DNA of 52,781 bases, counting the filler, from Jimgerdemannia flammicorona (lineage: Eukaryota): NCBI GenBank assembly GCA_003990765.1. It is 2 parts of 2 records of this genome, joined end to end, with 100 filler letters (N's around TTAATTAATTAA, not from the genome) between each part and the next. Parts side by side here need not be neighbours in the genome. Positions count along the whole stretch, not along the records: positions 1 to 26,344 come from RBNJ01000734.1; positions 26,445 to 52,781 come from RBNJ01000735.1. One strand, written 5' to 3'. The translations under genes were made by a program, and so were the position numbers. Numbering within the stretch: position 1 is the first letter of the stretch; every line of letters starts with the position of its first letter. The notes below the pieces were generated by a model. That model ran no database searches, was not told where the DNA came from, and saw nothing but the letters and a program-made list of their open reading frames with translations. Of the stretch, positions 10,164 through 43,501 are shown piece by piece.

Positions 10164-10194
10164 AGGACTCATCTGAAACTATATAATTTCCCTT

Positions 10195-14411: not shown

Positions 14412-14449
<38 letters not shown>

Positions 14450-16360: not shown

Positions 16361-17489
16361 GTTCTCAATCTCTTCTGTTAAGAACTAGGTCTAATAAGAT
16401 TAATAAATATCTATAAATGTCAATGATATACTTGTATCACCTTCTTCTTCAATCCTCTAAAATTTGTTACATACTTACTCTATTAGCTTATTAATTACTA
16501 GCTGATATATTTCTACTTCTTTCTTAGCTTTTGTTTGAGATTTTACAATTTCAACTTACTTATAGTACTTATATATTTCAAATTTAGATTTTTCAAATAT
16601 TAGCTAAAAATTCTTCCAAATCTCTTTAGTTAGAAGTTTCTCTTTACTATAGATATTGTGGCGTGCGGTTTGTATCCCTAGTTCTCTTCAGGCACAACTC
16701 AAGGTGCCACTTGATGAAGTGCGCGATATATGACTGAGTACGTTCGCGATGGTTATGGGTCGATAGTCACATGATCAGGTCGTTCGAAACATGCGATAAT
16801 TGATAATAGCGGGAGTTTGTTCGACGATGGCTCAATTGTTTAGTGAAAAGAGTGGCGAATAACTTGGCAGTGAACTTGAATTTATGCGGCGACGACGGGC
16901 TTGGCTTTAAGCAGTTCATGGTGCAGTAGGTCGGAGGTTGACGGCTTGCTCGTCCGTCTTGACTTGTTAACTTGAAAGGTTCCTGGCAGTCATTCGGGTC
17001 TTTGGCAGTGGTCTTGTATCCTTTGGCTGGGTAACTTGGGTTCCTTGGGTTTCCGGGTCTTGAATCTCGAATGGTAGTCAAATGCGCGGTCCGAATGGCG
17101 GTCTGAATGCACGGCGGTCATAGTCTTGAATCCTTGGCTGGGTCTCGGGTCTCGAATGGCAGTCAAATGGCAGCAGTCGGGTAACGTTTTCTTTCTGTGG
17201 CAAGAGAAAATTCTTTAACTCAAACTTCCGAGCAATCCATTGCTCTAGGTTGTTATCTTGTTCTCAGAATTTATCTGGTCTCTTGGAGGCAGTGGTTTCT
17301 TTGTAATCCCTTTTTACTTTTAAATACAAACTGACTGAGGTTTATTCACTCTAAGGATATGGGTTATTTATACAAGTTTGCTAGCTATGGATGCGGCTAA
17401 GGTATACTATGTTGTGGCGAACATTCGCTATGCTATTGGCTTGCACAATGCAAGGTGCAGGCTATTGTTTACTACGGATTGGGTTGTAG

Positions 17490-17712
17490 GGGATAGCAAC
17501 ACTGGATTCGGATGAGCAGACAGGAATGCTGATTATTGCCAGAAATAGTTGTGGAGGGTGGCAATGCTGAAAACGGGTGTTGCTGACTTGCTGACAAAAA
17601 TGCTGAAAATGGTGGCACTGGATAGCAACGCTGGATTTGGACTTGTTGACAAAATGCTGAAAACAGTTGTGCTGGGTAGCAATGCTGGTTCGGACTTGCT
17701 GACTTGCTGACA
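17490..17712. repeat. Degenerate ~54-bp tandem repeats in the putative U3 region
   Basis: Recurrent GGATAGCAACGCTGGAT(T)TGGACTTG(C/T)TGACAAAATGCTGAAAA, 3-4 partial copies between the ORF stop and the TATA box. Confidence 0.7.
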
Positions 17713-17751
17713 TGAAGGCTGCACAATTCTCACAGCTGACGGGTGGTACTT

Positions 17752-18852
17752 CTAGAGGAAATAGTACACTTCGTCTGCGGCAGGCAAACCTTGCTGGGTT
17801 AAGATTTCTTCTTCATCATACTTCTCCTCAAAAGGGGGAAGCACCGGCCAAGAGGTGAGGGGGTAGAAAAGTGGCCAGTCATCTTCAACAACATTCTCCA
17901 ACCCTTGAACAGCTTGAATGCCGACAGAGGACTGGTAGACTCTCTGTTGCTCCTCTTCTTCTTCTGAAAACTCGTCAGTTTCAGTGCCAGAGAGGGTTTC
18001 TTCAGGGGTAGGGTCTTGGAGTTCTTGGGCTTCCTCTTCAAAGACAGGGACCTCTTGGGCTTCTTCTTGATTCGGTTCCCAAATGATGAGATGTGAATTG
18101 TGGCTGACAGGGTGGTGGGTGGTTGGGGTAGCTCCCATGGGTGCTTCTATGGTAATGGGTGGTCCTTCAAATATCTCCATAAGACTCATTAGGTGACCTT
18201 GATGGTTGTCTCGGAGTGGGGTGGTGTGGAAACCTGGTTGAGTAGATTCGGTTTGTTGGCTTCCTACAGCGACGCGGTTGCTACCAGTAGAGTTGGCTAC
18301 TTCAGATTCTATCCAGTCAGCATCTTCAGTTGAAAGGCAGGAGAGGCTGCCAGCTGTTACTCCTTGCAAGTGTGCTATGGCCCAGGGAATATGGTGGAAG
18401 ATTTGGTGGACACGGAGGGCTCTCTTGATTAGCCGGCTAGTGGTTATCAATTCAGTAATGAGGCCTTCCCGATCATCTTCTTGAGTCTCATTGCAAAGGC
18501 GGTGTCTGATTTCGTAGTCATGCCAGAGGGTCATTCGTTCAGTAGTGTCTTTGAGCTGCTGGGTCATTATATACCGGTAGTTGATGAAGTGTCCAAGGTC
18601 CTCGGTGTAGAAGTTCAAGTGTTCAGAAGTATCTGGGCACCAGATGGCCTTCTTGATAGCTTCAAAGATCAGGGTCTTTGGGCCAGACAAAGGGGTAGAG
18701 CGGCGGGAGGTCTGGTTGGATCGGCGAATGGGAGGTATTGTGTGGTGGGTACTTGGTTCTTTGGTGCCGATCCCTGAGGTGGAGTATGGTTCCTTAAATA
18801 ACATGGTCTTCATTTTGGCTCGGATCATCTTGTCTTCTTTTGGGATGATCAC
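17752..18852 (-). CDS. Intact 366-aa (358 from first ATG at 18828) LTR-element accessory protein of unknown function
   Basis: Uninterrupted ORF with a basic N-terminus, a probably helical core and an acidic tail. Protein-level similarity to 35948-36778 supports real coding. Confidence 0.8.
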   Translation of the reverse strand: MIIPKEDKMIRAKMKTMLFKEPYSTSGIGTKEPSTHHTIPPIRRSNQTSRRSTPLSGPKTLIFEAIKKAIWCPDTSEHLNFYTEDLGHFINYRYIMTQQLKDTTERMTLWHDYEIRHRLCNETQEDDREGLITELITTSRLIKRALRVHQIFHHIPWAIAHLQGVTAGSLSCLSTEDADWIESEVANSTGSNRVAVGSQQTESTQPGFHTTPLRDNHQGHLMSLMEIFEGPPITIEAPMGATPTTHHPVSHNSHLIIWEPNQEEAQEVPVFEEEAQELQDPTPEETLSGTETDEFSEEEEEQQRVYQSSVGIQAVQGLENVVEDDWPLFYPLTSWPVLPPFEEKYDEEEILTQQGLPAADEVYYFL

Positions 18853-20614
18853 CTAATGAGTCAGGCTGTCCATTTGATTGTCACGCCATTATGTCGTCTG
18901 ATCTTAGCAGTCACTGGTACTCCATTGTCAATTGCGTACGTCACAATATACTTATGAAAGATATATATATTGGCAGAAAAGAAGATAATAGTGAAAAAAA
19001 AAAGACAATAATATTCTGCTGGTATCAGATTTGGAGATAATTTGCCTTTCTCTAGTCTTGTCATTATAGCTGTTATCTCATCAGTAATTATCCTTTATAT
19101 AGGAAAAGAAAGCTTATATATTTGCTTAAGGATATCATTGCTGAAATTAGCTATAGAGATATGTTTTGTATGGAAATCAAATTCTATCAATATACTTCTT
19201 ATTATCAAGCTCTACAATCTTTATAGATACTTCTAATAGAGAAGAATTATATAATTGAAATAAGTCATTAGTATAAGATTATTAATATAGATAATATTAA
19301 AATATTTAATAAATTACTTACCAATTAAACTATATATTCTAGATATTTTTACTTTAAGCTCACTATAATAAGACTCTAGTATATTCATTGAGGTTACTTA
19401 TACATAGTAGAAGAAGTGAGTGTTGATATACCCAAAGAGTTTATCTCTCTAAATTTCTCTTATAATTTCAATGAATATATTAAGTAATATCTTAGATAGG
19501 ATAGATAGTAATAGTATCTTAAATGGCCTCCTTATATTTAATTTTTATTCTCTTATATATTATAAGGATAAGTAGCTATATGATAGATCTTTTTCATCTA
19601 TAATCTCATTATATATATACTATAAAGAATAATATTATATATTTGCTCTCTTGTATTAGTATCTAGAAAAATCATCTTAATAACATTTACCTTAATGTTC
19701 TCTAGTTAGTAAGTATATATCAAGACTTCTACTGAGAATCAAATCATCAAACTGTCATCAATGTTACTATCACAGTATTACTATTCTTACTGCTTAAGAA
19801 GAAGTATATATCAACATTCTAATAATTATAGCTATTACAAAGATAGAGTATAAAGAGATACTATCCATACTTATTGATATTATGAGTAGAATCAATAAGA
19901 GTTGATCAGTCATATTGTATAAGCTTCTATAACTACCAAAAGTATACAAAGAAAAAGTCTTCTAAGAAGTACTATATAACTAAAAAATGATCAACCTGAT
20001 ATTATCTTTTTAAAAGAAACTTCTCAACAACTTGAATATCATTTTTGAAGTCAGACTTACTAATAAGCCTTATGATTTCTTGTCTATAGACTTTTTGATT
20101 AATGTTGGCAATATTCTTCATAATAATATTCCTTATACTAGAGAAAATATTAAGATTTTTTATCAGCTCTTTGATAGTAGTAATAATAGTAGGTGATATA
20201 TAGAGCTTAGAGACCTTTTGTTTAATTAATATTATAATTTTCTGTAAATACTTCAGTCTATTACTATTCTCTAAGATATGAGTATGATCAGAGATATTAG
20301 TTTACTATTTAACTCAGATCTTTTGAATTGCTATTATATATGTAATCTTAATTTTTATAAAATACTACTCAGCATTACAAGAGTTTGTTTTCCTATACTT
20401 AATGCTCTGATCTTCTTTTTATATGCTTAACTGATTGTACTTCAAAAATTAGCAGGAGAAAATCTTTCACTCATCTCTATTAGAAAGTTGTCTGGAGTGT
20501 TATTGTATTCAAATATTTGAAATAAGTAGTTACTCTTCCTTATTGAATTCTTCTATTGAAAGTTCAAATGATTTATAGATATTGAATAGATGAATATATT
20601 TCTCTTTAAATATC

Positions 20615-20870
20615 ATTGTGATAATTCTATTAGTAGTATATTGCATCAGTCTGTGATAATTCCATTAGTAATATATCATATCAGTCTATGATAATTCTGT
20701 TAGTAGTAAATTGTATAAGTCTATGGTAATTCTATTAGAAAGTATTGTACCAGTCCATGGTAATTCTGTTAGTAGTGTATTATATCAGTCTATGGTAATT
20801 CTATTAGTAGTGCATTATATCAGTCTAGGGTAATTTCATTAGTAGTACATTATGTCTGTCCATAATAATT
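20615..20870. repeat. 35-bp tandem repeat of MULE copy 2 (~7 units)
   Basis: CAGTCTATGGTAATTCTATTAGTAGTGCATTATAT-type units, the reverse complement of those at 6941-7125. Confidence 0.88.
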
Positions 20871-21845
20871 CTTGATATAATTGTGAGAATAATAATAAAT
20901 AATAATAATAATAAAGTGCTAGATAAATAATAATTTGTGATTCATCTTGTATTATATGTAAGAGTGAATAAATCTCAGTCTGAAATTGAAACCAAAAAGT
21001 AAAAGACAAGTCTGCCTACTGCACTTTGAGATATATACCTGCCAAAAGCCACTTGATCCAGGAAAGATTGCAATACTTAGGAGAAATACCTGCTCTAAAG
21101 CCACTTTTAGGAGATTGTGAGCTTGATGTCCTTTTCCACTCTGGTCCACTTTCTGATACAAAGAAGTCTGCCATCTTGCCACAAAGCCAGTCCACCTGAT
21201 GCACCTTCACAGTGAATTCATTCGCGCAAACAAAGCAGTCTTTGACGTAACTTTGCTCAAGGGAAGTCCACCAAGAAGCCTGCCGATTCAGGAATAATCC
21301 ACGCCAACTAAAATCCACGCCAACTAAAATCCACACCAGCTATGTAACCCGCCATCTAAGGAAGAATCCGCTTCACCCGCCATATCTGCATCACGCCACC
21401 CAGGAATTCGCCGCCTAATTAAAAAATTGCCGAAATCACCCGCGTTATGCGAAACAGAACATTTTGTTGCTTTTGACAAAGTAACTGGGGGCTCAAGCAA
21501 ATCTACATAGCAGCCCCAGCCTTGTAATTTGTCTCCATTGAGCTGGCACATTACAATATATATAGAGTAACCATGCTAAATATTCTTTATATATCTGACA
21601 ATACTATAGTATTTACTTATTACAATATATTTTTATTAAAGATATATAGAATTACTCTTACATATATCACAATTTTTACTCTTTTGATATTTTTCTTTTT
21701 TTTTCTATATTCTTTGATATATTTTTAGTAATTCTTACTCAAGGTTTTCTTTTGATTCTTTCCAATGAGTCTTATAAGTAATTTCTTCTATATCTAAATA
21801 TTATTTGATAGCTTTTGTATTGAATATTTTGAAAACATATAGTAC

Positions 21846-22489
21846 TTTTTTTTTTTATATATAGTTACTTGGACTTTATCATTTATTACTAATACTAAAC
21901 CAATCTATATCTATAAAATATACAATAACCCCACCCCTACCCAATCCCCCAGAGGGGTCTCCCTCTCCTCATCATAATAAAAGATCACCAGACTATTAAC
22001 TACCACAACTCTTCTACCACTCTACTTTCAAATACCCTCTACTAAACATCATCAATAACTACCCTGGAGGTTCTACCCTATTTACCAACCAGACAGAATA
22101 TCCCCCATCAACCACTCTCACCTTACCACCTTCTTCTCTAAGCTCATCTACCTATCCTCCTCAAATATATACAGCCAATGTCTAGCCAACTTCACTTATA
22201 ATATCAATGCTCACTTAATAGTGAGTCACTCATTACCAACATACTCAACCAACCTCATCTTCAAATTCTCCCATCTACTCCCTGTCCCATCAACATGTTA
22301 CCTTATCTCCAGAACCCTAACTATATTCCAGAAATCACTAATAACCATACACTCTCTCAGCCAATGTTCAGGCATCTGTACAAACCCTTCTTCTGCTCCA
22401 CATCATAATACTCTTCACAATCAAAGAATCCTCTATCAACTAAATAACCCAAGTGAAAGTTCAACATGATATTTCTCCTCAGTAAGTGC
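21846..22489 (-). mobile_element. 5'-truncated family-A LINE
   Basis: Poly(T) at 21846-21856, then ATATATAGTTACTTGGACT (terminal motif). Encodes the VQMPEHWLREC region. 14-bp TSD AAAACATAT(A/G)GTAC at 21832-21845 / 22490-22503. Confidence 0.88.
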
Positions 22490-22914
22490 AAAACATATGG
22501 TACAATCTTTTCAGCTGCTCTTTTTTCAAAATACTTCTAATCATACTATCGTTTTTTTGAATCCATAGTGGGCTTGATGTATATTAGTTTCATGTTTATA
22601 TTTTATATAGAGATAGCCGTATGTATTAATCACATTTTTGAGAAGCATAACGAAGAATATATGGCACGCATTGTTACATTTGGAATCGACTGCATATTAA
22701 TCGTCAACCGAGCATTTATATCGATCAAGATCGAAATTTGAAAAAGGGAGTCCTGGATTCTAAGGCAGTAGGCTATCTAAATTCACAATGTCCGTCTTCT
22801 TAGTTCCACGTGTAGGCGACTTGGGTGGCGGTCGTTCGACATTAGTTCTACGGACGTGATAACATGATTAACATCATGCTGTCAGACAAAGAATAATTCA
22901 GTATAAGCTTAACA

Positions 22915-25432
22915 TTACCTTTTCGATTTAGGGGTCAAGATTTTTTTCAATTCCACAGTCTTTTCTCCGAGCTCAAATTCGGTACTCTCTCCAAAAAATT
23001 TAGCTTTTCTTACAGCGGATTCCCCTAGCCGGCCCGCACGATCGAGCAGGTTCTGTAAAGGTCCCGTTAGCGAAATTGAACAGAAAATGACCAGTGAAAA
23101 TAATAAATGAACACATATCCTGTGCACGAGAAATCGCTTCGAAAGAAAAATGACGTCCGTGACGTCGCTGTCCGTTGTAGGAATGTTTTGCGTTGCCCAT
23201 TCGAAGAGGCCGAAGAGATCGCCATCAATCTGAAACAGGATGTAAAACCTAATTTTAAGGCCGATTACCTGGAAAAATGGTATGCTCAGGGACTTGAGAG
23301 CTTGCTGAACAATATATGGCGGTGGGTCGCTCCCGCATTCCTCGACACATTTTGATTTAATTGCCATATGCTGAGAACGTGCTACTTTTATGACATCGAC
23401 GAAATCTGTGATCCCTTTTTGGTGATTATCTTTGCAATTTGGTCCAGAATTTTCGCCCACGCCGGCTTCATGCTTTCGATTCTGCGCATAAATTTTGCTG
23501 TTAGATAAGACTATTTCACATCATTTTCGTATCTCAAACAAAACTTACCAGAAAGAGGAAATCGCAAGTCTTTCCTGAACGCGGGGTCTCCGAACGCGCA
23601 GATTTCTCTTCCTTATCAGCGTTCGATTGGTTCTCACCACTACCAGGAGAGATATAGTCAATCAATAATGTTAAACACTATCCTTAACAAAACGAAATGG
23701 ATAAAATAATACTTACTACAAAAAGATTGAATTTGGTGCCTTTGCGAGTGGGGCAACGAGATGCACGTCTACTGTCCGTTCTGACTGGCTTGTTCCATGG
23801 TAGTCACGCACCCAGGAATTCCTAGGATACAAATATCAAACGATATTAGCAGAGATCTCCACGTCCAAACATAGCAAATAATTGACCACAAATCAACACG
23901 TACGCGACATCCAAACATTCTGCGACGTATTGGGTATCGGCGTCATGAATGTCGATTTGTTTCAGGGTAGTAGGGTCAGCTGGTGGTCCACGTCATCTTC
24001 CGAGCGCTGAAGTACATGCTCGAGTTGTGCACATAATTCTCGCACGTCAGCGACGTTCCTATTAATGGCTTCAGTTGGGATTATCTCCTTCTGCATGAGC
24101 TGATGCGGACCTTCCTGGAGTCTTTGACAAAGCAAAGCATAGATACCAGCGGTCCCGTTGGCACGTTTCGACTTGCTGATCTCCTGAAGACTGACAATAT
24201 TCGACAGCATAAGCGCTTCGAGGAACGCTTTGACGGAGGAATTCAACTGTGATTCCGTCATTATAACATTGGCAGCCTTTTGTCGGAGTTTTTGAACGTC
24301 TGCATCCGAGAGGAACTGCTTGGCTCGGGGTAGAGATGCACATGGTCCAACGTTTGACACACGGAAGTCAACGACTCCCCAGCATAGTGGACTGTAGAAG
24401 TGTTATGGATAGTAATATCAACAACGAGAACTTGCATGCCGGAGGAAGAACCAGTAGACAGAAGTACATACTTTGTTAATGGGATGAATCGCAATGTGCG
24501 GTGTTGATACCGGCCAACACCTTGGAATATGTGTGTCTGCAATACTATGTGGACAATGTCAGAAACAAGCGCTTGCCTAACGTATCAAAGGACGATAGAT
24601 GGCGAGATGTATCCGTACTTTTCGCCTGTAGCACTGGTGGATGTGGCATCGAAGGGCTGCAGAAAAGAAGGAATGTAAATAAACAAGAAAATGACTCCAA
24701 CACTTGGCCATTTTAGATAATGACAGTTTGGAATCCCGAAGTTTACCCGTATCCTTTCAGAAATCTCGTCACTATCCTCGTCATAGTAACTACCAGTCTC
24801 TTCGTTGAAACTCTGACAGCGATATAAAATTGTTTGCTTAGCATGCTTTCGCGAGGAAGACACAATTTAGTTCATCCCATTACATGCAAATGTCTGGCTG
24901 ACCTTGGCTCCGAAAGAGTCACTCGGCCACACGCCATCGTTGTCTTCATCGTCATTTTCCGCGTTCACATCCACACGAGGTCGTTTGGAAATCTCGTGTT
25001 TATTCTGCCCATAACTGACCTCTGCGGCGGCACTTGTAGCGGTCCTGGCAATATTTTCTATCTTACGCTATATTTGCCATAATATGATGAAAAGACAAAT
25101 TTTGTTATAGAACAATAGATAGATAAATTGGACCAGCAGGGCAACACATACCTTGTTGACAACCTCGTTAATTTTACTTTCGGCGCTAATTTTTAGCAAT
25201 GATTCGTGATGCTCGACCCAAATAGATGAGGTAACAACATTCTTCTTATTTTGACGCTTAAAAGGTTTGGGAGAAAGAAACAGATGTTAGGGTGAGCTAA
25301 ACATAATAGTTGATGGCGCAAGCCACGTATGCTACAGTTGGCCTCGAAGGTCTAAACCATAGCATACTTCCCACTTCGGAATTTCTCCGTCAGTCGCAAG
25401 TAGCTATTCTTGGTGATCAAGTTGCCCAATCG
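22915..25432 (-). pseudogene. Multi-exon Crinkler-like gene with a C-terminal restriction-endonuclease-fold (PD-(D/E)xK) domain; disrupted and 5'-interrupted by a LINE
   Basis: Introns 23822-23903 (GTACGT..TAG), 23640-23716 (GTAAGT..TAG) and 23482-23548 (GTAAGT..CTAAC..CAG) splice in frame. The product reads ...QSERTVDVHLVAPLAKAPNSIFLYGENQSNADK...SGKTCDFLFLNRKHEAGVGENSGP...KGITDF...IPFFQVIGLKIRFYIL. PLCWGVVDF lies upstream. There is a frameshift near 23965. The family call comes from motif recognition, not a search. Confidence 0.7.
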
Positions 25433-26344
25433 ACACATCTGGAGGTTGTGGGCGGGAGGCGTATCCGTATGGATAAGAAGAAGTGGGAGTGGATCCAGGG
25501 ATGCAAGAGGCAGAAGGAGCTGTTGGAGGGTATGTCAGGTGGGGGGAGGAAGCAGTCGGGTGAAGTCAAGGAGTCTGGGGGTGCTGAGGCCAGTGTCTGG
25601 GCTGGTAAAGGAGGAGAGGAGGTGGAGGCGAAGGAGGCAGGTGCTGGGAAGGGGCTGGTAAAGGACCCATTTGCTGAGGGTACCTTTGAAGTGTGGGAGC
25701 CGGAGTTGGAGGCCACCCCCCCACTTATCAGGAGGGGCCCAGTGGGGATGCGAGGAAGGCCGGAGGATACACGGATGCAGGGGGCCCAGCAGGTGCGCTT
25801 TGGGGTCCCTGATGTGGCTCAAGGGGGTCAAGTGGTGGCAGTTGGCGAGGATGAGCTGGTGGATGTCCCTGAGGAGGAGTGGGATGAGGCTGCTAGTGTA
25901 GGAGCTGATACTACGATGTTGGATGCAGGGCGGCCGGGGACTCCGGGAGGGAAAGAGGTGGGGAACTTGCTGTGGGTACGCAAGGTGATGGATAACCTCG
26001 CAGCAGAAACATTGGGGGAGGTGGACCTGTGGGCGATGTCTGAGGAGCATTGGGCTAGGATCCTGCGTGTGGATGGAATGGTGGAGGCGCTGAAGGTGGA
26101 GATTCTGATGATATTGCTAGAGGAGGAGGGATATGAGGTGGATGAGGTGAGGAAGGCAGACCTGGGGGTGGTCGCTGCTGAGAGGGCAGCTTACTGTTGG
26201 GCGGAACGTCGGGGTCTACAGCTCTGGCAGGAGGCATGTCTGGAGTATCGCGAGGATTTTGAGGAGCGTGAGGATGGGGCGATGGTCGAACTTCTGGGGG
26301 TATTGGAGGCACGGGAAGCTGGGGAGAGGGATCTGGCTGCTGAA
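25433..26344 (+). mobile_element. Family-A LINE fragment (ORF1 C-terminal half), relatively young, cut by the assembly gap
   Basis: Open frame homologous to 9200-10100 (ASVGADTTMLDAGRP..GKEVGNLLWV; LQLWQEACLEY). Retains many CpGs. Confidence 0.88.
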
Positions 26345-26444
26345 NNNNNNNNNNNNNNNNNNNNNNNNNNNNNNNNNNNNNNNNNNNNTTAATTAATTAA
26401 NNNNNNNNNNNNNNNNNNNNNNNNNNNNNNNNNNNNNNNNNNNN
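26345..26444. other. Assembly gap: N44-TTAATTAATTAA-N44 artificial linker
   Basis: Exactly 100 bp and symmetric; the 12-mer has stops in all six frames. Confidence 0.97.
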
Positions 26445-27678
26445 CTACCTCTTCTTGATGAAAGACCACTTTGTCTAACACAATCCCTACCCTCCCACCA
26501 CTCTGCTCACAGATCCTTGCCACCAAACTGTGATGTTGCCCCCCCTGAGGACCCCAACCAACCCACCATCTAGTCAGCAGATCCCCCAACAGCTCCTCCT
26601 ACCTTAATACCTTCTTCTGTAGCCCTATCTGCTGCCCCTCCTCAAATACAAAGAGCCAATGACCTGCAAGTCCCACCCACACTGCTAACACCCACCCTAT
26701 AGTAAGCCAACTATCACTCACCCCACCCACAAGCCGAGATCTGAAGTTCTCCCAGCGGCCCCCCTCAACTGCTGGCCTTTGCTCTATACCCATTCTATTC
26801 CCTATTTCTACCCAAAAGTCTCCCAATACCTCACACTCTCCCAGCCAATGTTCTGGTGTCTGCACCAGACCCCCAGCTTGCCCTACATTGTAACACTCCT
26901 CACAATTGAAATAGTCACCATCCATCAGATGCCCAGTGTGGAATTTCAACATGACATTCCTCTGCAGCTTTTGCCACCATATCACCCAGAACTTGGGAGG
27001 AAGCCACCTCCGCACCTCAGCACTCTATGACCCAATATCTGCCCAGTCCCACTCCTCACTGATCTCTGCTACCTGCCAGCCACTTGGCCAAAGATCTTGG
27101 CCAAGACCCTGCTGACACTCCACTCCATCCCCAATATCAAATGTAGCAAGTAGAGTACCCCTCAGTAGCAGTCTATTCCATCACTACATATCAGGCCCCC
27201 ACATCACCTCTCCCTCATTGCCTTGCCAGTGCAGGCCAATTCAGTGTGCTCCATCTACCACTCCCCACCAAAAGCCATTAAACTGCAGCTACCGATTTCC
27301 ATTCAGCCCTACCAAAGAGAGCAGATCTCCTGAGGACCCTCAAGGGGAGGTTCTCATCTCCCACACCTTCTGCAGCAGAGGCACCCAACCTCTGCCCTGC
27401 AGTTCAGCAGCTCTCTTCAACCACCAGACTCGCAAGCAGTGCAACCTCTTAGGGAAATACACAAGGCCAAGACCTCCCCTGACCACCGGTATTGCAAGAG
27501 TATCTCAACTGATCTAGGACCTCCTCCCTGGCCAAATCTAATCTCTAGCCACCTTTGTCAGCCTCTTCACCACCCACACTGGAAAGTCTAGGTGATAGGC
27601 CATGTACCACAGCTTCGAGAACCAGTATACATTCAGAATTGACACCCGCCCTGCCAGAGAGATATGGCAGCCTCCCCA
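26445..27678 (-). mobile_element. 5'-truncated family-A LINE (ORF2 3' part) abutting family-B RT
   Basis: RVSILNVYW...PPKFWVIWW...CEECYNVGQ...EHWLGEC is A-type. It is joined directly after B-type FADDMVVGL at ~27680. Confidence 0.78.
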
Positions 27679-28235
27679 CCAACCCAACCACCATATCATC
27701 TGCAAATGTACCCAGTTTTCATACTATACCACCCATTCGCAGTCCAGAGAGATGTCCCTTCAGCCATGCTAGCAATGGCTCCAAAGAGAGTATATAAAAG
27801 AAGGGGGAGAGAGAATCGCCCTATGGTACACCACACCCCAAAGCAAACTCTGGGCCACTCCATCCATTCATCATAATAGCTACCCTGCATCCTCGTATCA
27901 AGCCCATCAATCTCCCTGCTTCTGCTGCTCCAAATCCATCTTCCTCAGAACAGTCTCTAAGTAGATCCACCACATTCTGTCATAGGCCTTCTCTTGGTCC
28001 AGAAAGACCATCCTATCATCCACCTGCCAGCTCCTACAGCTTTTTAAGACATTCTGCATCCAAGCTGTACTATCCCTGATCTGCCTTCCTTTGACAAAGC
28101 CTCGCTGCTCTTCACCAACCAGCATGCCCATATACTGCTGCATTCTTCCCACTAGAATCTTCAAGACCAGCTTTCTATCCACATTTAGCAGCATAATAGG
28201 TCACCAATTCTGCCACACCCGCTGATCACCCTTCT

Positions 28236-28239
<4 letters not shown>

Positions 28240-28270
<31 letters not shown>

Positions 28271-31200
28271 GTCACTTGGACTGCCCTTTATTACTGAAAT
28301 ATATAGTACTAACAATACAATGCCACTCTCACCCTCACCCAATGCCCCATGGGCCCAGACCTCCCCTCTCATTCTTCCCCTGCCTGAGCACCACCCGATC
28401 ACCCACTACCCGAATCCTTCCACCACTCTTCTGGGAGATGCGCCACACCAACCCCCTGTAGTTCCCTCCACCCAGTCCCCAACCCTGCCACCAGCCATTC
28501 AAAATGTCCAAAAGCAACCATTCCCAGCACGCCAACTTGTCCCCAACCCCAACCCGATGCCCTTCCTCAAATACATGAACCCAATGCCCGGCCAACCCAA
28601 CCTACATAGCCAAAGCCCAACCAAGGGTCAGCCATTCATCCCCAACTCTACCCACCAGTCGCCAGCGGAGCTCTCCCCATCTCCCCCCTCCCTCTCCCTC
28701 CAAAACACTCAGCCCCACCTGGTTCATAATATCTCTCCAAAACCCCTCCAAAACCACACATTCATCAAGCCAATGTTCAGGCGTTTGTACCACCCCTCCC
28801 TCCTGGCCAACGTTGAAACACTCCTCGCACTCGAATACTCCACCATCCATCAAGTGCCCAGACTGATAGTTCAACATCACATTCCGCTGTAGGACATGCC
28901 ACCATACCACCCAGAACTTGGGGGGTAGCCACTGCCTCACTCTTTTTCTCCAGAGCCAGAGTCCATTCCAATCCCACTCCTCACCAATTCCGACCCTCTG
29001 CCAGGCTTCAGGCCACAGGTCTCCACCTAGGCCTTGCAGACACTCCAGACCCTCACCAAGCTGAAAGTCCTCCACCAGAACACCACCCAGTAGCAACCTG
29101 TCCCACCGCCACATCCGCGGTCCCCAATCCTCCTCGGCTTCATCACCTTGCCACCAAAGTCCAATCTTCTTAGTGCTATCCACTACTCTCCACCAGAAGC
29201 CCGTAAACCACATCCTCCCACTCCCCTCCATGGCCACCATCGTGAGCAGGTCACCTGAATCACCATGTGGGGAGTACCGAACCTCCCACAATCTCTACAT
29301 GAGTGGCACCCACTCCCGACCCTGAAGCTCACTTGCCCTTCATAACCACCAAGCTCTAAGGCATAGGAGCCACTTAGTAAAGTCCACTAAGCCCAGCCCC
29401 CCTCTTTCCAAGGGCAGTGTGAGCACCTCCCAACTGACCTGGCTCCGCCGCCCTCTCCAGATCTATGACCTCACTATCTTCAACAGCCCCTTGACCACCC
29501 AGGTTGGGAAGTCCAAATGATATCCCATGTACTACAGCTTTGGTATCCAATACACATTCAGCACCATCACCCTTCCAGCTAGGGACATATGCCAGCCTCC
29601 CCAACGCAGCAGAACATTTCCCCACTCCAATAGTCTATGATCCCACCATACCCAGGGAAGAAGAGATCTGAACACTGAGAAGTAGATCCCCAAATATCAC
29701 ACCAGTTCTCCAGCCAGTATCACTGTCCCAATGACATTGCCACCAACAATCCCTGCACCAAGCACCAGAGTCTCGCACTTATGCCAGTTCAGTTTAGCAC
29801 CAGAGCCCCTCTCATACCATTCCACAGACCTCTGTAACTCCCCTACATCTACCAGGGAGCCCAGCCCGACCACCATATCATCAGCAAAGGCCCCCACCTT
29901 CCAATTAACCCCTAAAATGTCCAAACCCCCAATTTGACGCCGAATTCTATCCAGTAGGGGCTCCAGAGAAAGGGCATACAATATGGGTGACAAGGGGTCC
30001 TCTTGTGGCACCCCACGTCCCAGGAGAAAGGTCACTCCCCTGTGGCCATTAACAACCAATGCTGCCTGACTGTCTTCCAAGAGGCTGATCAATGATCCTC
30101 GGAATCCTGGGGGGATACCAATCCATTTCAGCACCCCCTCCAGCCATATCCTCCATACTCTGTCATAAGCCTTCTCCTGGTCCAGAAACACCAACCTACC
30201 ATCAACCCCTGCTGCCTGGGCACCTTCAATCACTCCATGAACCCAAGCTGTCCCATCTCGAATCAACCAGCCACCAACAAACCCATGCTGCTCCACACTA
30301 AGCACCTGCTGAGCGATTCCTTGCAGCCTCATTACCAAGATCTTTGTCACCAGTTTGTGGTCCATATTGAGAAGCATAATTGGCTGCCAGTTCTTCCAGT
30401 CCTCTTGCCTCCCCTTGTTCTTATAGAGCAAGGAGACTAGCCCTAAGCACTGTCCCCCAATCCAGGCACCAGACCGAAGAACTCCCTCACACATAGCAGT
30501 CATCTCCTCTAGCACCTTACCAACCCCAGCCATTTTCCACCAAAAATCCCAGGGAAGCCCATCCTCTCCTGGGGTGGTCCCCTTACTCGTCAAGGCCAAA
30601 ACCCTGCAAATTTCCTCACTACACACTGGGTCCCCTAACACTCCAAGCCCCATTGCAGGGTCTGGGTGCCAATCCCCCAGCTGCCTCTCAATGTCCAGAG
30701 TATCCTTTCCTCCTTCCTCCTCACTCTACAAATTCTCCCACCAGTTTCTCAAAAGGCCCAGGATCACCAGAGACCCCACCACCAGCTCGCCATTCATATC
30801 CAGAACCCCCTCCCACTGCTGTCTCATTCATCGTGCTTGTAACAACCTCAATAAAAACCTTGTAGGCCACTCCCCTTCCTCCAGCCCCTGCCACTGTAGG
30901 CGGGCCACCATTCCCTGCAACTTCACCTCCTCCTCCTTTCGTAACACTTCTTTAAGCTCATCGACCTCCTGTTGGATTCTCACAATGCACCAATCAGTTA
31001 CGTCCCCATCCTCCAGCACACCTGCCCATCTCCCCATGAGTGCTGTCAGACGCCGTGAGGCCCACAGCACCCTCTGCCTTTGCTGGGTACACTTTCCTTT
31101 CCCCACTTCCCTCCAGTACCTCTGGGCAGTTGCCTTCAGTCTTCTCCAGCGGTCCCCAATCCCCAGGCCTTGTTCCTGCCACCTACCGATATTTCCAACC

Positions 31201-34030
31201 ACCTCAGTCTCCCAGCCCTCCCACAACATCCTATCCTCCAACAAGGAAGAATTTAGCTGCCAATGTCCAGGCCCATCCTCATTTCCCCCAAATCTCTCCC
31301 CTCCAAGCAGCCCCCTGTGATCAGACCACGGACACCATATTACTTCCAGCACCAACCAGACATCTGCTCTCCAATACTCTGCCGTCAGAACCCAGTCAAT
31401 CCTGGAGCCCAGCCCTACTGCCCAGTGGGTGTACACCCACTGATCAGCCCAAAGGTGTCTTCCTGAGTCCACCAAAGAACACAACCTCTATATTTCCAAC
31501 CAGTCACCCAGCCCACCACTTTTGCCCTGCACGCCTCTCCCACCATCTGTTCTATCCATCTCCTTATCCTGTACCATGTTGAAGTCACCCCCCATACAGT
31601 CCAGGCCAACTTCTCCCAATACACTGGCCTCTTTCAATCGGCGAATCCAATCCACCCTCTCCCCTCTTTCAGCTGGGCAGTAACAAGACCCAACCATCAA
31701 TGAGCCCCATCCAGGCCTCTTCCACATACCCCACACTACCCGAGAACCCCAATGTCCAATGTCCACAATGTCCCCCATCCCTTTCCAAATGAGAATACAC
31801 ACTTTCCCCCTCCATACTGCCACGCCCCCCCATTCCTTAGTCCAATCCTGTAAGTCCACATCTTCCTCATATCAAACATCCTATAGTAAGAAAAGGTCCA
31901 CGTCCAATCCCTTAAGCCATCCAAATATGTACTCCCTCCTAGCTGCCCCCCGTAACCCATTAACGTTCAACAAGAATATCCTAGTTGTACTGTTCATATT
32001 GAAAAAATGTTGAATTGGCGACCCCAACCTAGTATTCCATGCTCATCTCATCCCCAGCCAAATCCAAGCACTGTTCAGCTTCCAAGTCACCCTCTACAAT
32101 AGCCTGAGCATCCAGTGCCTCCAAGATTTCCTGATATTCCACCCTATCCATGACCTCCATATCTGACCAGTAGTCTAAGCTGACTGTGCACCACTTCTCC
32201 AGTCCCTTCCTCGAGTTCCACAAGAGAAGTGCCCTGTCACTCGCAATCTTCCGAAGCTCCTCCTCCCGCTGGTCATCCACTTGATATTCAACTGACTCCA
32301 GGAGGACAGCCAGGATCTCATTCCTCATCTTCCTCGGCACCTCCTCCCCCCAGAGAATCTCCTCCCAATGCCTCTCCTCCATCACCCAGAAATCCTCACC
32401 CCCCAGCTCCTCAGCCGCTACCCCTTCCAGGGTCTTCCACATCTACTTCTCCTCATCCACTGCCTCTACCGCACCCTGAGCAATACGTCCCCCATCCACC
32501 TTGGGATCCATCAGCATGCTCCTCCTCACTAACTCATCCCACTCCTCATCCGGCACATCCAGCAGCTCCTCCTCCCCCTCAGCCCCGCCCGGGACACTAT
32601 ACTGAAGGTGCATACCCTCACACATTTCGGCATCTGCCTCCAACTCGCCTTCCTTCTCTTTCCCCACTCCAATCTGAGCCCCACCCTGGGCCATTTCACC
32701 CCCCTCAGCCCAAGCGCTCTCCTGCAACCCTGCAACTCCTTCCCCTGGGCTTTCACCAGCCCTACCCCCACCCAGCCCTGCCAGAAGCTCCTTCTGGATT
32801 TTCCTCCCCTGCATCTTCTCCCAAGCCCCCTTCTCCATCCGGACCTTCTTCCCATCCACCTCCCCTATCACCATCCTGGCCTCAAACTCCTTCCAGGCCA
32901 ATCTCCTCCTTACAACCACCCCTTCCAAGTCCTCCAGCACCTCCAACAGGTCCTCCTCCTCCTCCTGGATCCCCTTCACCCTCACGATCTTACACTCCAC
33001 TGGTCCCCACCTCAGCACCGCTGGCCAGTCTCTCGACTTCCCTGTATTCTCCTTCCCAGCCAGCCTTACCCTGACATCGACATCCCCAGTCCTAAGCTCT
33101 GTGCCCTCCCAGACCTTGAACCCAATGTCTACAATCTCTCTATACTCCTTGATCACCTCTACAACCAGCTCCCTGGTCCTCTCCTTCGACATGGTCGGGA
33201 AATCCAACACTGTCAACTGCACCACCTGGGGGTCCCAGCACATGCACCAGGCCATAGGGACCACAACCCTGCCAACTGTCACCCCCTTCTCCATGGCTGC
33301 CAACAAGGCATCTTCCTCCTCAAACCCCACCTCAACCCTCTCCTTTCCCCTCAAAAACTTCACCGATGCTGCTCCTTTAGCCTCCTGCGCCACCAGCCCC
33401 AAAATCATCTGTGCCATCACCACTAAGCCCCGGAAGCACATAGTGACTGCGAATTCTGACCTCAACTTCTTGAGTAATGGGGCCGACACCATGCCCGTCA
33501 TGCCATCTGCCAGGTCCCCAGGCCTCATGCCCACTCCTAGTCCCGAATTGCCAACTGCTGTCACATCTGGATTTTTGCCAGATCCCCAGTCACAGCCCCA
33601 TCAGCAGTCACAGTGCCATCTCCAGCCCCTACTCCCACTCCTACCCTGCCACCTGAGACTCCTCTGGGTACACCTCCCTGTCCCTCAGCAGCTGCCGTCG
33701 ATGCTTTCCCCAGGCCCAGCCAATCGTCAAGGCCTGAGGCCATCTTCCCCATTCTGACCTTATCATTGAAGGTTGACCTCTCCCCACCTATTTGCCTCAG
33801 CCTGCCCCTCCCTCCACCTCCAGGACCTCAGCCAACCATCGAGGCCCCCGGCATCCCCAGACCATCTCCCCTCCTCTCCACCTGCTGCCAGCCAAAGGCG
33901 CCAGCACCCCCCTGACCAGCATGCTCACCAGTTTGATCATTGCTATCCATGTTGATAGTTGCTTTATACCGAAACATAGTAAAAAGTGTTGCCTGAGTTC
34001 TTGTGTCACCCGAATGTTACTGGTGAAAGG
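28240..34030 (-). mobile_element. Full-length family-A LINE nested in the family-B LINE
   Basis: 17-bp TSD TGATCACCCTTCTCCTT at 28223-28239 / 34031-34047. Poly(T) to 28267. The 5' end (CTTTCACCAGTAACATTC) matches 8052-8069. ORF1 spans ~33840-32029 and ORF2 31997-28335, with APE, RT (FADD) and CCHC motifs and several stops. Confidence 0.95.
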
Positions 34031-35169
34031 TGATCACCCTTCTCCTTATAAAGGAGGGAAACTAATCTCAAGGAATCATTGCCAATTCAGCTACCCTCCT
34101 TTAGAACAAAGTTGGCCATCTCTACCAACCAGCCTCCAAACTCTGCCTTGAACTCCTTCCAGAATCCTAGGGCAATCCATCCTCCCCAGGTGATGAACCA
34201 GCCTGTGTCTTCTGCAATTCCTCCAAAATTTCCTCCAAAGACACTTCACCCATCACTGCCCACCCTATCTCAGGTACTGCTGCTACTGACCAAGTGTCTA
34301 CCATATTGCCACCATCCTTCCCAGGCACCACATTCCCTTCTGGCTCCCCTCCATCCTGCCAGAGAGTCTGCCATTGTCCTGAGACCTCTCCCAACATATC
34401 AGCAATCCCTGTGACCTCCATTCCATCTTCGCACAGTATAGAGACCCAACTGTGTCACACCCTCCTGGCCTTCAAGATTCCAGACAGATATTTAGTTGGC
34501 CTCTCACCCTCCTCCAACTGCCTTGCTCATAGTCTTGTGAGTAGGCCATCCACTGCTCTATCCTCAGCTGCCCTCATTTCAGTCTGTAGCTCTGCCACCT
34601 CTACTGCCAACTGGTGGCACTTCTCTCCAGACAAGTGTCCCTCTTCCATTAACTTCAATCACCACCTTAGCCTCTTTTCGACCCTCCTTACCCTATCCAT
34701 CTGCTCCTTCCCAACTACTTCAACAACATTCCTCCAATAGGCACCTACCAAATGTTTGAATTTATCCCACCATTCCACTATTAACTGCTCATCATTTTGC
34801 CACCATGTTACTTCCTGTTGTGCAATGTCTACAAACTGATCTCTTTCCTCCTTCCTCCTGAGTAAAGCTACATTGAGATGCCAGCACCCACCACTACTGT
34901 CTGCCACCTGAAATCTGCCACACACCTCCACTCTCCAGTGATCTGACCATGGACACCAATGTACCTCCACAACATTCAGCACATTACCTCAGCTCTTAGC
35001 TACCAGCACCCAATCAATTCATGTCCTGACTAATTTGTCTCCCACCAGGTGCCACCAGATGAATGGACCTGACTCATCTCTCTGATGCTGATGGACACCA
35101 TCCACCAGTCCCATATCTTACTCCACCTGAAGCCACTGAGATAGCTCAGGGGAAACCACTACTCCTGCC

Positions 35170-35936
35170 TGTAATAACTCTCACTTCTACCCCTCTCTTA
35201 TCCTTTAGATAATTAGGGAAGTAGACTATTACTTAGGGACTTAGTACACAATATATATCAAGAAGCCTTCAGTTTGAGGAAGTGCTCACTTTAAGTAGTT
35301 GTAGTGGCAGTGCCATCTGTTTCAAAGGTCTTTCTCTTGTGCCCTATTTCGAAGGTCTTGTTCTTTGCTATGCACAGACTGATTTCGCCTTGGAATTCAG
35401 GTTCAATGGGTTTACTTAAGTCTTTGGGGATTTATATACTGGTCTCAGTTCTGGCAGAAGTTAGCTAGGCTTCTGGAGTTTAGTCAGAAATACTAGAGTC
35501 ACTTAGGTGTCATTACTAAGACTCAGAGGAATGTGTGTGTATGAGGGGAACTTGATTCTTGTATCAAGGACTGAACTAAAACTGCTTTATTTCAGATGGA
35601 AACTGGGGGGTATTTATACAAGTTGGTTCGCGATTTCTGACTAAGTATGAGTGACTAATTTGGTAACTATAATGAGGTTTGTGATTGCGACCTTTGTCAG
35701 GTGGTTTGTTGGCAAAAACATCTTTGTGATCAGGACCTCAATTATTAGGCAATGATCAGCAGCTGTGGTAACTGTTGCTGTGGTGCCGATTGTTGGGGAT
35801 AAGTTGGATATTGTTTTCAATGTCGTTTCGCATCATTCATCACTCACTATTCATATGTCATGCTCAATCGTATTATGACATGATCACTGCTGGGTCACAT
35901 GATCGCTTGTCATTCATCACACCTCATTCTATTACA
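35170..35936 (-). repeat. 3' LTR
   Basis: TGTAATA...TATTACA, a direct repeat of 43502-44268. TATA at 35611-35618 and AATAAA at 35586-35591 on the minus strand. Confidence 0.96.
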
Positions 35937-35949
35937 TTCTTCTCCCCTT
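35937..35949 (-). promoter_or_regulatory. Polypurine tract
   Basis: AAGGGGAGAAGAA immediately before the 3' LTR. Confidence 0.9.
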
Positions 35950-36778
35950 AGAAATCAATGTCCTCGTTGATTGAGAAATTGAGAACCAGGGGAGAGAAAG
36001 GTGGGGAATCCTCTTCAGGGTTGTTGGCATCCTCTTCAGTAGCAGGGGGGGTGGTGGTTGTTGAAGTCTCGCTGTCCAGGATGGAGAAGTCAATGAGGTC
36101 TGCAAATGGTTCCTGCATTGGGATGGGTGCTGGTATAGGGGTTCTCCATCTGATGCAGTTGGGGCTATTCAAGTAGGGTTCTTGATCTTAATGCCTGGAA
36201 ATATTCATGTAGATAGGTGGTCCTTCAAAAAGGTCAGAGAGGCCTTGGAGCCATTGGTCTGGGTTGTCATTCAGGAGGGGGCTCCAGTAGGGTTTGCAGT
36301 CAGTGGACTTGAGGGTGATCCAGGAGTTGGCTTCTTGGGCTACCTTGATCTCTAGTTTGTCAACCTTGAAGAAAGAGAGGTTCTGGAAGTCCTTCAGTTG
36401 GACATAGTTGAGGTTGGGGAGTGCAAAGGATGTATGGCATATGATTCAATGGACCTTCTTGGCAAGTCTTTGCTCGCTCCCATCCAGGTGGGTCCAATCA
36501 GAGACTTGGTCCATGGGCAGGTTATTTGCCCATTGGAGGAGTTGATGGCCAATCTCATATTTATGCCAGATCTCTAAGTGGCTGGTGGCAAGGTAGGCTC
36601 TTTTGATGACTTCACGGTAGTTGAGGACATAATGTCCTATGTCCTGGCTGGAGAGGTCAAGGGCCTCTGAGCAGTGATTCCTTCCTTAGATAGCAACCTA
36701 GATGTGTCCAAAGAGGTGGTCAACCTGGCTTGGGAGGGGCCAACTACGGCAGGTGGTTTGGCAGTAGGTAGCAGGCAT
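35948..36778 (-). pseudogene. Accessory ORF3 of the gypsy (277 codons, 4 in-frame stops, no indels), homologue of 17752-18852
   Basis: Manual translation: MPATYCQ...PLPSQVDHLFGHI*VAI*GRNHCSEALDLSSQDIGHYVLNYREVIKRAYLATSHLEIWHKYEIGHQL...RLAKKVH*IICHTSFALPNL...PLLNDNPDQWLQGLSDLFEGPPI...acidic tail. Confidence 0.8.
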
Positions 36779-36839
36779 TCTTGTCTTGTCTTTTCTTTGT
36801 GGGAAGAGGGGGATGAGAGTTGCAAGGTATTCTTGCCTT

Positions 36840-36851
36840 GGGTATTTATAC
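36840..36851 (-). promoter_or_regulatory. Putative internal TATA box for ORF3
   Basis: GTATAAATACCC lies ~65 nt upstream of the ORF3 ATG. It is the same 12-mer as the LTR TATA box. Confidence 0.55.
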
Positions 36852-37422
36852 TTATTCACCTATCTGGTGTGACCTTCCTTTGGTCACACTTTCTGATAAA
36901 ATATATGACCTGTTGCTGTAAGTGGGGCATGTGCTGGTCACATGAGAAAGTCCTGATTTCAAAGATCTTGTTACTTGTAGTTGTGGTTACACAGGGTTAA
37001 CAGGTCTTGGTCCACTTTTTTTTTGTCTGGTTGGCACATTTGTGAGGACTGGCCATCCTTGTCTAGGGCGAGGGCTCCCATTATTGCAGCTGGGGGTTTG
37101 AACCTCTTGGAAATAGACTTTTCTTGTAATCCGAGGCAATTCCTAGTAACAATATCTATCACGTGAATGGACTTAAACTGGTTTTGACATTGTCAGCTTT
37201 CCTAAGTTCCATATGAAGCATCTGTCATCATCCAGCAGAGATGACACAGATGGTGTAAAATGAAGTTGTTCAAATGTGTTTTGCTATACTGTACTAGATT
37301 GTTCTTTTGCTTGGGTATCTTCTTGTTAGTTATCCATAGTGTTCCTTTTTCTGCAATGTTCGGTATTATATGTTTCCAGGTAAAATATGTAGTATCCTTC
37401 TTCTCATTATACGCTCCAATAC

Positions 37423-40400: not shown

Positions 40401-40895
40401 TTTGAATGGCAGAGATGATTTCAATTCCTTGATGGTTAGTACCTTCCTGGGGTGTCAAGGTGATATTTCTGCCTTCATGGGTCAGGTTAATCTTGTTGGT
40501 TCTCCAGTTGATGTCTGGGTTGTGCTGGGTCAACCAGGCTTTTCCTAAGATAATATCTTATCCTGGGAGATCTACAATGCTGAAGTCCAACTTCTCTTGA
40601 TATTTGCCAATCTTGAGCAAAAGATCTTTGCAGATCTTAGTCAATGGTGCAGTTTTTCCATCACCAAAGGTGACACTTCTTTTCTCAGTGGCTGGTCTGC
40701 TTCGGGCTCCAATCCTCTTGGTGGTCTTGATGCTGATATAGTTTCCAGTAGCACTACTATCAAGCAAGACATTGACATTCTATCTGTGGACTTGGCCTGT
40801 AAACTTGATGTAACTGTCCTCCTTCTTGATGGTATTAAGCTCTTCATCTTCATTGTTGTCCCAATTGTTGTCAGTCTCCTCGAAGTCAGTTTTTC
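37423..40895 (-). pseudogene. pol: pol: protease, RT, RNase H, integrase, chromodomain (single frame, nonsense stops only)
   Basis: LDSSATGNYIS (PR); [28 protein letters not shown] (RT); TDVS, ADGFSR (RH); HDTP..GH..CEMC, MDFIVQLP, YHPQTDGQTE, GPY (IN); FDIEEVLDH..FLIKWKGY..IWE (chromodomain, ~37470-37630). Confidence 0.95.
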
Positions 40896-41132
40896 CCATC
40901 CTTCACAAGGAGGGTTGTCTTGTTTGGGTTTCTCAGTCTGTTGAGCTTGATGTTTCTTGGATTGAATTTTGAAAACTTTGGAGAGGCATGCATGGCATTC
41001 ACCAATATGTTCCATGCAGTACATTCTAATGGAATGAGGGCATCATCCACATGGTGCATAACTATCTGCAATTCTCCTGTACTCATTTTCATCATCTTCC
41101 TTCATGGTAGTGACCTTTTGACTGGGAGGTTT

Positions 41133-41546: not shown

Positions 41547-41639
41547 AACATTCTCAGTGTTCTTCTTTCCTGGACCTTCTCCAAAGACAGTAATGTTCTG
41601 GTTACTGGGTTCACCTGTTCTGTACTTCTTCTTAGGACA

Positions 41640-43400: not shown

Positions 43401-43484
43401 AGTTAATTCTGGGGGTTACTCCTCTCTAAGGTTGGTCTTGTTCCAACTTCAGGAGTGTATTCTCTGGTGCCTTCTTGGCTGGTA

Positions 43485-43498
43485 ATCCACTGCTACCA
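43485..43498 (-). promoter_or_regulatory. Primer-binding site, probably tRNA-iMet
   Basis: TGGTAGCAGTGGAT, 3 nt downstream of the 5' LTR. Confidence 0.8.
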
Positions 43499-43501
43499 AG
43501 T

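Follow-up and report, generated by a model that had tools for sequence, protein, structure and literature searches.

In a 52,781-nucleotide stretch of DNA from Jimgerdemannia flammicorona (hereafter the window; positions 1 to 26,344 come from RBNJ01000734.1 and positions 26,445 to 52,781 from RBNJ01000735.1), we identified two distantly related open reading frames (ORFs) on the minus strand, each associated with a different retroelement bearing long terminal repeats (LTRs). ORF A (17752..18852) lies within what we read as a solo LTR, and ORF B (35948..36778) occupies the position of an envelope gene (env) in a Ty3/gypsy chromovirus. The two are probably copies of a single accessory gene, lineage-specific and not of the envelope type, that belongs to a chromodomain-bearing Ty3/gypsy clade. 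The accessory gene family that they represent is real, was previously uncharacterised, and occurs in chromovirus-type retrotransposons.

ORF A is an open frame of 366 codons. ORF B spans 276 codons and is interrupted by four in-frame stops (codons 27, 31, 111 and 197), with no frameshift required. When the stops of ORF B were read as X, BLASTP aligned the two proteins with 62.4 bits (E = 1e-15) and 30% identity over 195 columns, and the domain that they have in common comprises about 190 residues. As a control, ORF B was shuffled 500 times; 294 of the shuffled sequences gave any alignment, with a top score of 26.6 bits. At the DNA level, the best BLASTN match within the ORFs is only 48 nt long at 75% identity (E = 0.015). 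An earlier note on this DNA, made from the sequence alone, had claimed that the two frames align as proteins despite little DNA similarity, and both parts of this claim are borne out. The note had also called for a family profile. We built a hidden Markov model (HMM) from eight other members, leaving ORF B out, and ran it on the six-frame translation of the window. It matched ORF A at an i-Evalue of 6e-140 and the ORF B frame at 1.3e-80. The third-best match had an E-value of 1.3, and thus the window holds exactly two copies of the family.

ORF A had been described as intact, which is correct insofar as its 366 codons are open. However, the family-homologous part runs only from 18741 down to 17752; the 38 codons upstream of it are a non-native extension, as relatives begin at the MPP motif. 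In the window, the codon at this family start position is a non-start, whereas contigs from the three covering metagenome runs have a start codon there. In most contigs of run X1, the upstream extension is closed by a stop; X1 is the sole run among the three that shows this variant. The window copy of ORF A is therefore a relic without the family start codon, and that of ORF B is a relic carrying four stops. Neither copy looks functional, and both look to be in decay.

Searches beyond the window recovered a small and divergent family. A full HMMER scan of 1,835,955,588 representatives returned eight proteins at E ≤ 1e-3, five of them at E ≤ 1e-10. The word-indexed search returned one 325-aa protein that is 76% identical to ORF A, and the profile search found five family proteins. 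The members fall into three subfamilies with 21–33% identity between them: an A-type (ORF A, P0002 and P0003), a B-type (ORF B, L001/P0005, P0004 and P0007) and a third comprising P0010 and P0011. Each subfamily includes intact ORFs from independent contigs. Full-length members begin with MPP or MPA, and the N-terminal motif MPP..R..QT..S.PLP is kept. The blocks WH.YEIGH.L, A.K.HQIFRH.P..I, L.DNPDQ.L and FEGPPI are retained across the family. Judged on members with a complete C-terminus, the proteins finish with an acidic run and then P.(V/I/F)(L/Y).(F/L), an arrangement present in P0004, P0007, L001, ORF B and P0011 and is looser in the A-type. No longer or fused forms were found among 3602 candidates, which is weak evidence, and none of 23 pattern matches in viral contigs was confirmed as a family member. 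DNA related to the window was found mostly in soil metagenomes, and the best runs contain 0.22–0.27 of the words; no RNA run was among those listed.

None of the seven members searched against Pfam-A gave a match at E ≤ 1. This null result extends to Sag, Nef, foamy-virus Bel, Tax, Rev, Tat and Transposase_28/TRP28, which we take to be represented by Pfam models. A sequence-profile search of the PDB yielded one match, at E = 1.5, and in the protein atlas the best score of ORF A was 0.80, which is chance level. In the literature that we searched, we found neither this accessory family described nor any LTR retrotransposon with an ORF inside its LTR; the "add. ORF" of some fungal chromoviruses is possibly related, as far as the available part of that paper tells (PMC2864245). 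The proposal of an unrecognised family thus stands, with no fold match either (see below). In contrast, the suggestion in the earlier note that the proteins recall an abundant, transposon-linked Glomeromycota domain gained no support; only 8 of 1.84 billion representatives match.

The setting of ORF A is a 2289-bp unit on the minus strand (16657..18945), which starts with TGTGACG at 18945 and finishes with GCCACA at 16657. Its TG..CA ends form an imperfect terminal inverted repeat. The unit is flanked by a target-site duplication, ATAT, with the upstream copy at 18946..18949 and the second at 16653-16656. A paralogous empty site is present at 15207-15210, where the opposite arm of a large inverted repeat has a single, uninterrupted ATAT. 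Together, the duplication and the uninterrupted paralogous site indicate precise insertion of the unit. Contigs from four soil or coded runs (likeness at least 80%) cover 16700-18945 and stop at 18945. Past this position, one continuation is common to five contigs (four from run X1, one from run X2) and is purine-rich on the minus strand and abuts the TG, as expected for a putative polypurine tract (PPT) ahead of a 3′ LTR; one contig of run X5 has different sequence there. The shared continuation does not occur in the window at up to three mismatches, and the unit is therefore not an element that was interrupted by an insertion. The window contains no second copy of LTR A and no internal gag-pol belonging to it, and both the unit and ORF A are single-copy there. 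We therefore interpret 16657-18945 as a solo LTR left by a second element, of A-type, and ORF A falls entirely within the presumed U3 of this LTR. The LTR-embedded position claimed beforehand for ORF A is thereby supported. A DIRS-like or foldback element around ORF A, an idea prompted by the 2-kb inverted repeat, was rejected, as that repeat is the sequence into which the LTR inserted.

ORF B belongs to an element on the minus strand (35170..44268), identified by its LTRs, duplication, primer binding site (PBS)-like sequence and Pfam domains as a Ty3/gypsy chromovirus with a dUTPase. The LTRs (35170-35936 and 43502-44268) are 767 bp long, 92.8% identical and bounded by TGTAAT..ATTACA, and the element is flanked on both sides by the 5-bp duplication GGCAG. 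Three nucleotides past the 5′ LTR is the PBS-like 12-mer TGGTAGCAGTGG, which starts with TGG. The Pfam run covered 127 of the 128 stop-to-stop frames of at least 90 codons in the window, with one frame dropped and one shortened at the N runs (26345-26444). On the minus strand of the element, it gave the order dUTPase, RVT_1, RT_RNaseH, Integrase_H2C2, rve, SH3_Tf2-1 and Chromo, with several broken frames. The dUTPase domain (PF00692, E = 4e-16; 41046..41366, minus strand) lies between gag and the reverse transcriptase (RT). It is split over two frames upstream of RT, with the N-terminal part at 41424-41822 and the C-terminal part at 41046-41366. In the protein atlas, the clusters that match the pol fragment of the element are commonest in Streptophyta and Basidiomycota. 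The pol end (37426..37938, minus strand) encodes the integrase SH3-like domain (SH3_Tf2-1, 7e-20) and a chromodomain (Chromo, 6.5e-11), with the stop codon at 37426-37428. About 650 nt of non-coding sequence separate this stop from the start of ORF B at 36778. At the other end of ORF B, the PPT (35937..35949, minus strand) overlaps its TAA stop codon and abuts the 3′ LTR at 35936. The gene thus has the env position that had been ascribed to it, after the integrase chromodomain and before the 3′ LTR.

The same junction recurs in L001, a metagenome contig of 1535 nt that carries an intact homologue of 291 codons. This homologue is 56% identical to ORF B (58% over a 210-residue local segment by tblastx), and the contig repeats the order of last ORF codons, purine tract and TGTAAT. 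A non-coding block is also conserved between the two loci (window 37030-37077, L001 12-60), about 250–300 nt upstream of the accessory ORF and amid diverged surroundings; it may be a cis element. The flanks of the chromovirus, 34034-35159 and 44274-46785, match another copy of a long interspersed nuclear element (LINE) at 50795-49669 and 49658-47170, respectively. The two matching stretches are about 10 bp apart in that copy, and thus the chromovirus is nested in a LINE.

The two loci differ in LTR length (2289 versus 767 bp), in the length of the target-site duplication (4 versus 5 bp) and in their proteins, which are 23–30% identical. They nevertheless have the same 3′ organisation. The core promoter block of LTR A (17341..17372, minus strand) has TATAAA at LTR position 1574 and AATAAA at 1600; in LTR B the corresponding motifs are at 319 and 346. 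The core TATAAATA/AATAAA is common to both LTRs, with 18 nt at 94% identity. ORF A ends at LTR position 1194 and ORF B ends 12 nt ahead of its LTR, so that the spacing from ORF to the TATA/poly(A) core is 330–380 nt in both elements, which places the ORF between pol and R on the genomic RNA. The sole difference in layout is whether the PPT follows the ORF, as in ORF B, or precedes it, as in ORF A; the LTR-embedded position and the env position are therefore the same place on the RNA. The earlier note had treated the placements as two different solutions, and here we differ from it: there is one layout, in which the boundary between PPT and LTR has shifted.

From this layout we propose that the accessory gene would always be located at the 3′ end of the genomic RNA, after pol and 330–380 nt before the TATA/poly(A) core of the LTR. 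In the B lineage, the PPT, which sets the left edge of the LTR, coincides with the stop codon of the ORF and leaves the gene internal. In the A lineage, a PPT upstream of the gene places the whole ORF in the presumed U3, where it would be copied into both LTRs in each cycle and persists in solo LTRs such as the one found here.

Comparison of ORF B with its L001 homologue points to selection. The overall ratio of nonsynonymous to synonymous rates (dN/dS, NG86 method) is 0.24, with 0.16 for the core alone and 0.56 for the tail. The uncorrected ratio (pN/pS) is 0.42 in frame (bootstrap 0.34–0.52), versus 0.84 and 1.45 in the two shifted frames, and identity by codon position is 63/78/53%. For ORF A, the metagenome contigs give a contrast in indels. 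All 13 of the contig pieces listed over the ORF are gap-free, whereas 10 of the 15 listed over the non-coding part of the LTR contain gaps, and all 12 of the listed indels at LTR A are at or below 17688. The claim of a conserved, selected gene is supported for the family; the listed variants of ORF A, which look neutral, point the other way for recent A-type copies (see below).

Across eight members, the maximum of the Kyte-Doolittle profile over 19 residues ranges from 0.46 to 1.08. As no 19-residue window exceeds 1.08, the proteins have no transmembrane segment, which agrees with the earlier statement that this is not env. The tails after FEGPPI (at least 79 residues) contain 18–28% D+E and 8–15% Pro, so the description of them as acidic and Pro-rich was apt; in P0005, a tail remnant of 21 residues has 14% D+E. 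The tails also carry hydrophobic patches (DLI.F and P.VLNF). An acidic tail with such patches resembles what we take to be the classes of acidic activation or adaptor motifs. Two AlphaFold models, based on seven and eight sequences, had a mean predicted local distance difference test (pLDDT) score of 51 and 54. Both agree on a helical core (means of ten-residue blocks between 51 and 93) and on a disordered tail with pLDDT below 50. The product is thus predicted to be a soluble protein of 250–340 residues with a helical core of about 150 residues and a disordered acidic tail. Comparisons of fold, which the earlier note had recommended, gave only noise-level matches: the wide fold search with VIA had a best Z of 3.9 for the ORF A model and 5.0 for the P0004 model, Foldseek against the PDB a best E of 1.3, and the BFVD search a best E of 0.03 with a probability of 0.2. 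Because the models are weak, these blanks do not show that the fold is new.

Each of the three loci has a single TATA-like motif within the 200 nt before the start, at −59 (ORF A), −72 (ORF B) and −80 (L001). The sense-strand background of such motifs in these elements is 0.124 per 100 nt. The candidate promoter of ORF A is TATTTAA (18794..18800, minus strand), 59 nt upstream of the family start; no second motif of this kind occurs within 204 nt of that start. For ORF B, the candidate internal promoter is TATAAAT (36844..36850, minus strand), 72 nt upstream of the start codon. A pyrimidine tract with AG precedes the ATG of ORF B by 17 nt, and we infer from the sequence that this could be an alternative, candidate splice acceptor. 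In our model, the gene would be expressed as a subgenomic mRNA, either from its own TATA-type promoter 59–80 nt upstream of the start or by splicing, and this mRNA would end at the poly(A) signal of the LTR. By analogy, as with the trans-activator or anti-silencing factor suggested in the earlier note, the protein could be a nuclear regulator that boosts transcription of its own element, a role that we put forward tentatively and rank first among those considered; it is followed by an adaptor for RNA export and by one that recruits a host factor or counters silencing. A further possibility, which we regard as quite unlikely, is that the A-lineage LTR would be a self-contained cassette of a TATA-type promoter close to its 5′ end, the ORF and the poly(A) signal, so that each solo LTR produced by recombination would go on supplying a trans-acting factor, either an activator or an anti-silencing adaptor, to the full-length elements that remain.

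Several observations weigh against the interpretation as a whole or in part. Linkage to retroelements was seen at only three loci (ORF A, ORF B and L001) among the family members. No full-length A-type element was seen; the evidence that the unit around ORF A is an LTR consists of its terminal sequences, the target-site duplication and five contigs from metagenomes. The dS between ORF B and L001 is 1.4, which is near saturation, and the contrast in indels between ORF A and the non-coding LTR may come partly from indel-prone short repeats. Of the 23 variants inside ORF A among the best-supported ones listed (172 further variants fall outside that list), 5 are silent and 18 alter the protein, two by creating a stop, with codon positions 11/6/6. 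This neutral-looking pattern is as expected for copies that decay after insertion. The TATA motifs were spotted after the fact, and those of ORF B and L001 are homologous rather than independent. With regard to the proposed nuclear role, the helical core is not basic (pI 5.7–6.7), which disfavours direct DNA binding, and the structure models that describe it are of low overall confidence and derive from only seven to eight sequences.

Other roles, and other origins, have to be set against these readings. An adaptor for the handling or export of unspliced genomic RNA, like CERV of Cer1 or retroviral Rev, is unlikely, although CERV has the same placement as here, being encoded downstream of pol in a Ty3/gypsy element by an ORF that is not env, according to the available part of that report (PMC10309623). 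A-type proteins do have a short Arg-rich N-terminus, but the stretch is not kept in B-type members, and Pfam found no RNA-binding domain, nor is there any likeness in sequence or fold. Were the ORF reached by splicing, the element would need to export unspliced RNA; the splicing of ORF B, however, involves a candidate site only. About as improbable is a host-directed adaptor that would act against silencing, in a role like that of VANC in plant Mutator-like elements (MULEs), or would recruit a host factor through short linear motifs of the acidic tail. The acidic run with P.(V/I/F)(L/Y).(F/L) is the best-kept feature of the tail and is found, in all three subfamilies, in members that have a recorded C-terminus; DLI.F patches recur in the B-type, and the tail is predicted to be disordered. 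Presumably, these hydrophobic and acidic motifs would be of the SUMO, Atg8 or clathrin type, but no analysis linked them to a partner, and the tail evolves fast (dN/dS 0.56).

We consider it very unlikely that the two ORFs are a captured or ordinary host gene, or a fragment of one, that sits in two elements by chance and has no role in retrotransposition. Capture of genes by LTR elements is well documented, and genomic context was read for only one of ten database homologues, which leaves some room for this explanation. However, ORF A, ORF B and L001 all adjoin the junction between PPT and LTR at an equal distance from the LTR promoter, and the lack of fused or longer forms mentioned above is a further, weak point against it. 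Moreover, the A and B types are only 23–30% identical yet retain the layout, which argues for long co-descent with the elements. The least probable alternative, to our mind barely credible, is a degenerate envelope gene whose signal peptide and membrane anchor are gone. It would fit the env position in the chromovirus and the long central helix of the models, and there are weak structural alignments to the retroviral fusion core 5h9c_A (Z = 3.3 and 3.5), but these scores are far below the noise level that the tool states for helical models, and none of the eight members has a hydrophobic segment. Since intact members are equally soluble in architecture, the absence of membrane features is not due to recent decay.

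As a whole, the window consists of nested retroelements in an AT-rich background of about 27% guanine plus cytosine (GC). Three G-rich LINEs with endonuclease and RT are located at about 8–14.4 kb (plus strand), 27–34 kb (minus) and 47–52 kb (plus). These copies (8001-14000, 28001-34000 and 48001-52000) have about 51–57% GC versus 27% in the background, and their strand bias is extreme, as G exceeds C on the coding strand (GC skew 0.34–0.49). Two runs of 44 Ns (26345-26388 and 26401-26444) fall in a LINE-related region. The large inverted repeat extends over 6601-20957, with arms 6601-8043 plus 14446-15210 versus 20957-18946 at 76–84% identity (81–84% in the arm core), and it may be a foldback element or an inverted duplication. 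Its centre (15207-16656) is a self-complementary array of 35–38-bp tandem repeats, and a 182-bp segment (7168-7349 versus 20409-20590) is flipped relative to the arms. Both the solo LTR with ORF A and a LINE have inserted into this repeat. The LINE (8044-14445, plus strand) looks full-length, with endonuclease and RT, and lies in one arm; its two flanks match the other arm with an overlap of 16 bp (19692-19707), as expected for a LINE target-site duplication of about 15 bp. At the start of the window, a 158-bp direct repeat of 99% identity (1-158 and 5163-5320) is clipped by the window edge. It may represent the two LTRs of a young element occupying the first 5.3 kb, within which there is also a LINE 3′ fragment (4096-5205). 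Neither the Rfam search nor the tRNA search found a match in the window.

That LTR retrotransposons can carry extra genes is established, but roles have been assigned to few of these genes, and hardly any have been described for fungus-type chromoviruses. The family reported here offers a testable candidate for a retrotransposon-encoded regulator. It has been caught in two states that differ only by the site of the PPT, and would thus be a natural example of an ORF entering an LTR. Should the ORF be driven by a promoter of its own, solo LTRs, which are usually deemed inert scars, could be expressed genes. The A-lineage cassette, if it exists, would be a distributed helper strategy of a kind not described for LTR retrotransposons.

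The closest positional parallels of LTR A are retroviral. The sag gene of mouse mammary tumour virus (MMTV) encodes a superantigen from within the U3 of the LTR, and nef of lentiviruses overlaps the 3′ U3. Like these, LTR A has a protein-coding ORF downstream of the PPT, in U3 and at the 3′ end of the genomic RNA. Sag, however, is a type II membrane protein, whereas the accessory protein has no hydrophobic segment, and in the present case a relative of Ty3/gypsy chromoviruses, rather than a retrovirus, resides in a non-vertebrate host. Another parallel is with foamy viruses, where Tas is a transactivator with an acidic domain that acts on the LTR and on the internal promoter. The foamy virus accessory genes tas/bet are expressed from an internal promoter, according to the portion of the source available (PMC13220597). 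In both cases, accessory genes follow the structural genes, and the acidic tail is a further point of likeness, as the TATA-like motif at −59 to −80 in three loci would be if it served as a promoter. Unlike the foamy virus case, the core here is not basic, there is no likeness in sequence or fold, and the promoter is a candidate only.

Among Ty3/gypsy elements, Cer1 of C. elegans encodes CERV, a novel non-env protein after pol that is made from a spliced mRNA, is involved in export of the genomic RNA and thereby helps to regulate expression of Cer1 itself, as far as the available text of that study describes it (PMC10309623). The present family likewise comprises proteins other than Env whose gene follows pol in an LTR retrotransposon; it is unrelated to CERV in sequence, as the family searches returned only the accessory family itself. 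Additional ORFs at this place are well established for plant Ty3/gypsy elements. One such element, Retand, has ORFs with a TRP28 domain in antisense orientation between pol and the 3′ LTR, in the accessible part of its description (PMC11963269). These differ from the accessory ORF, which is in sense orientation and matches no Pfam model, whereas the Retand ORFs are antisense and encode a domain known to Pfam. Some fungal chromoviruses are drawn with such an ORF, labelled "add. ORF", and dUTPase domains occur in fungal chromoviruses at varied positions, as given in the available portion of that survey (PMC2864245). Neither the Retand ORFs nor the fungal "add. ORF" is reported inside an LTR in the parts of the two papers that were available (PMC11963269, PMC2864245). 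The make-up of the chromovirus that hosts ORF B matches that of the dUTPase-bearing fungal chromoviruses, as the same portion of the survey presents them (PMC2864245).

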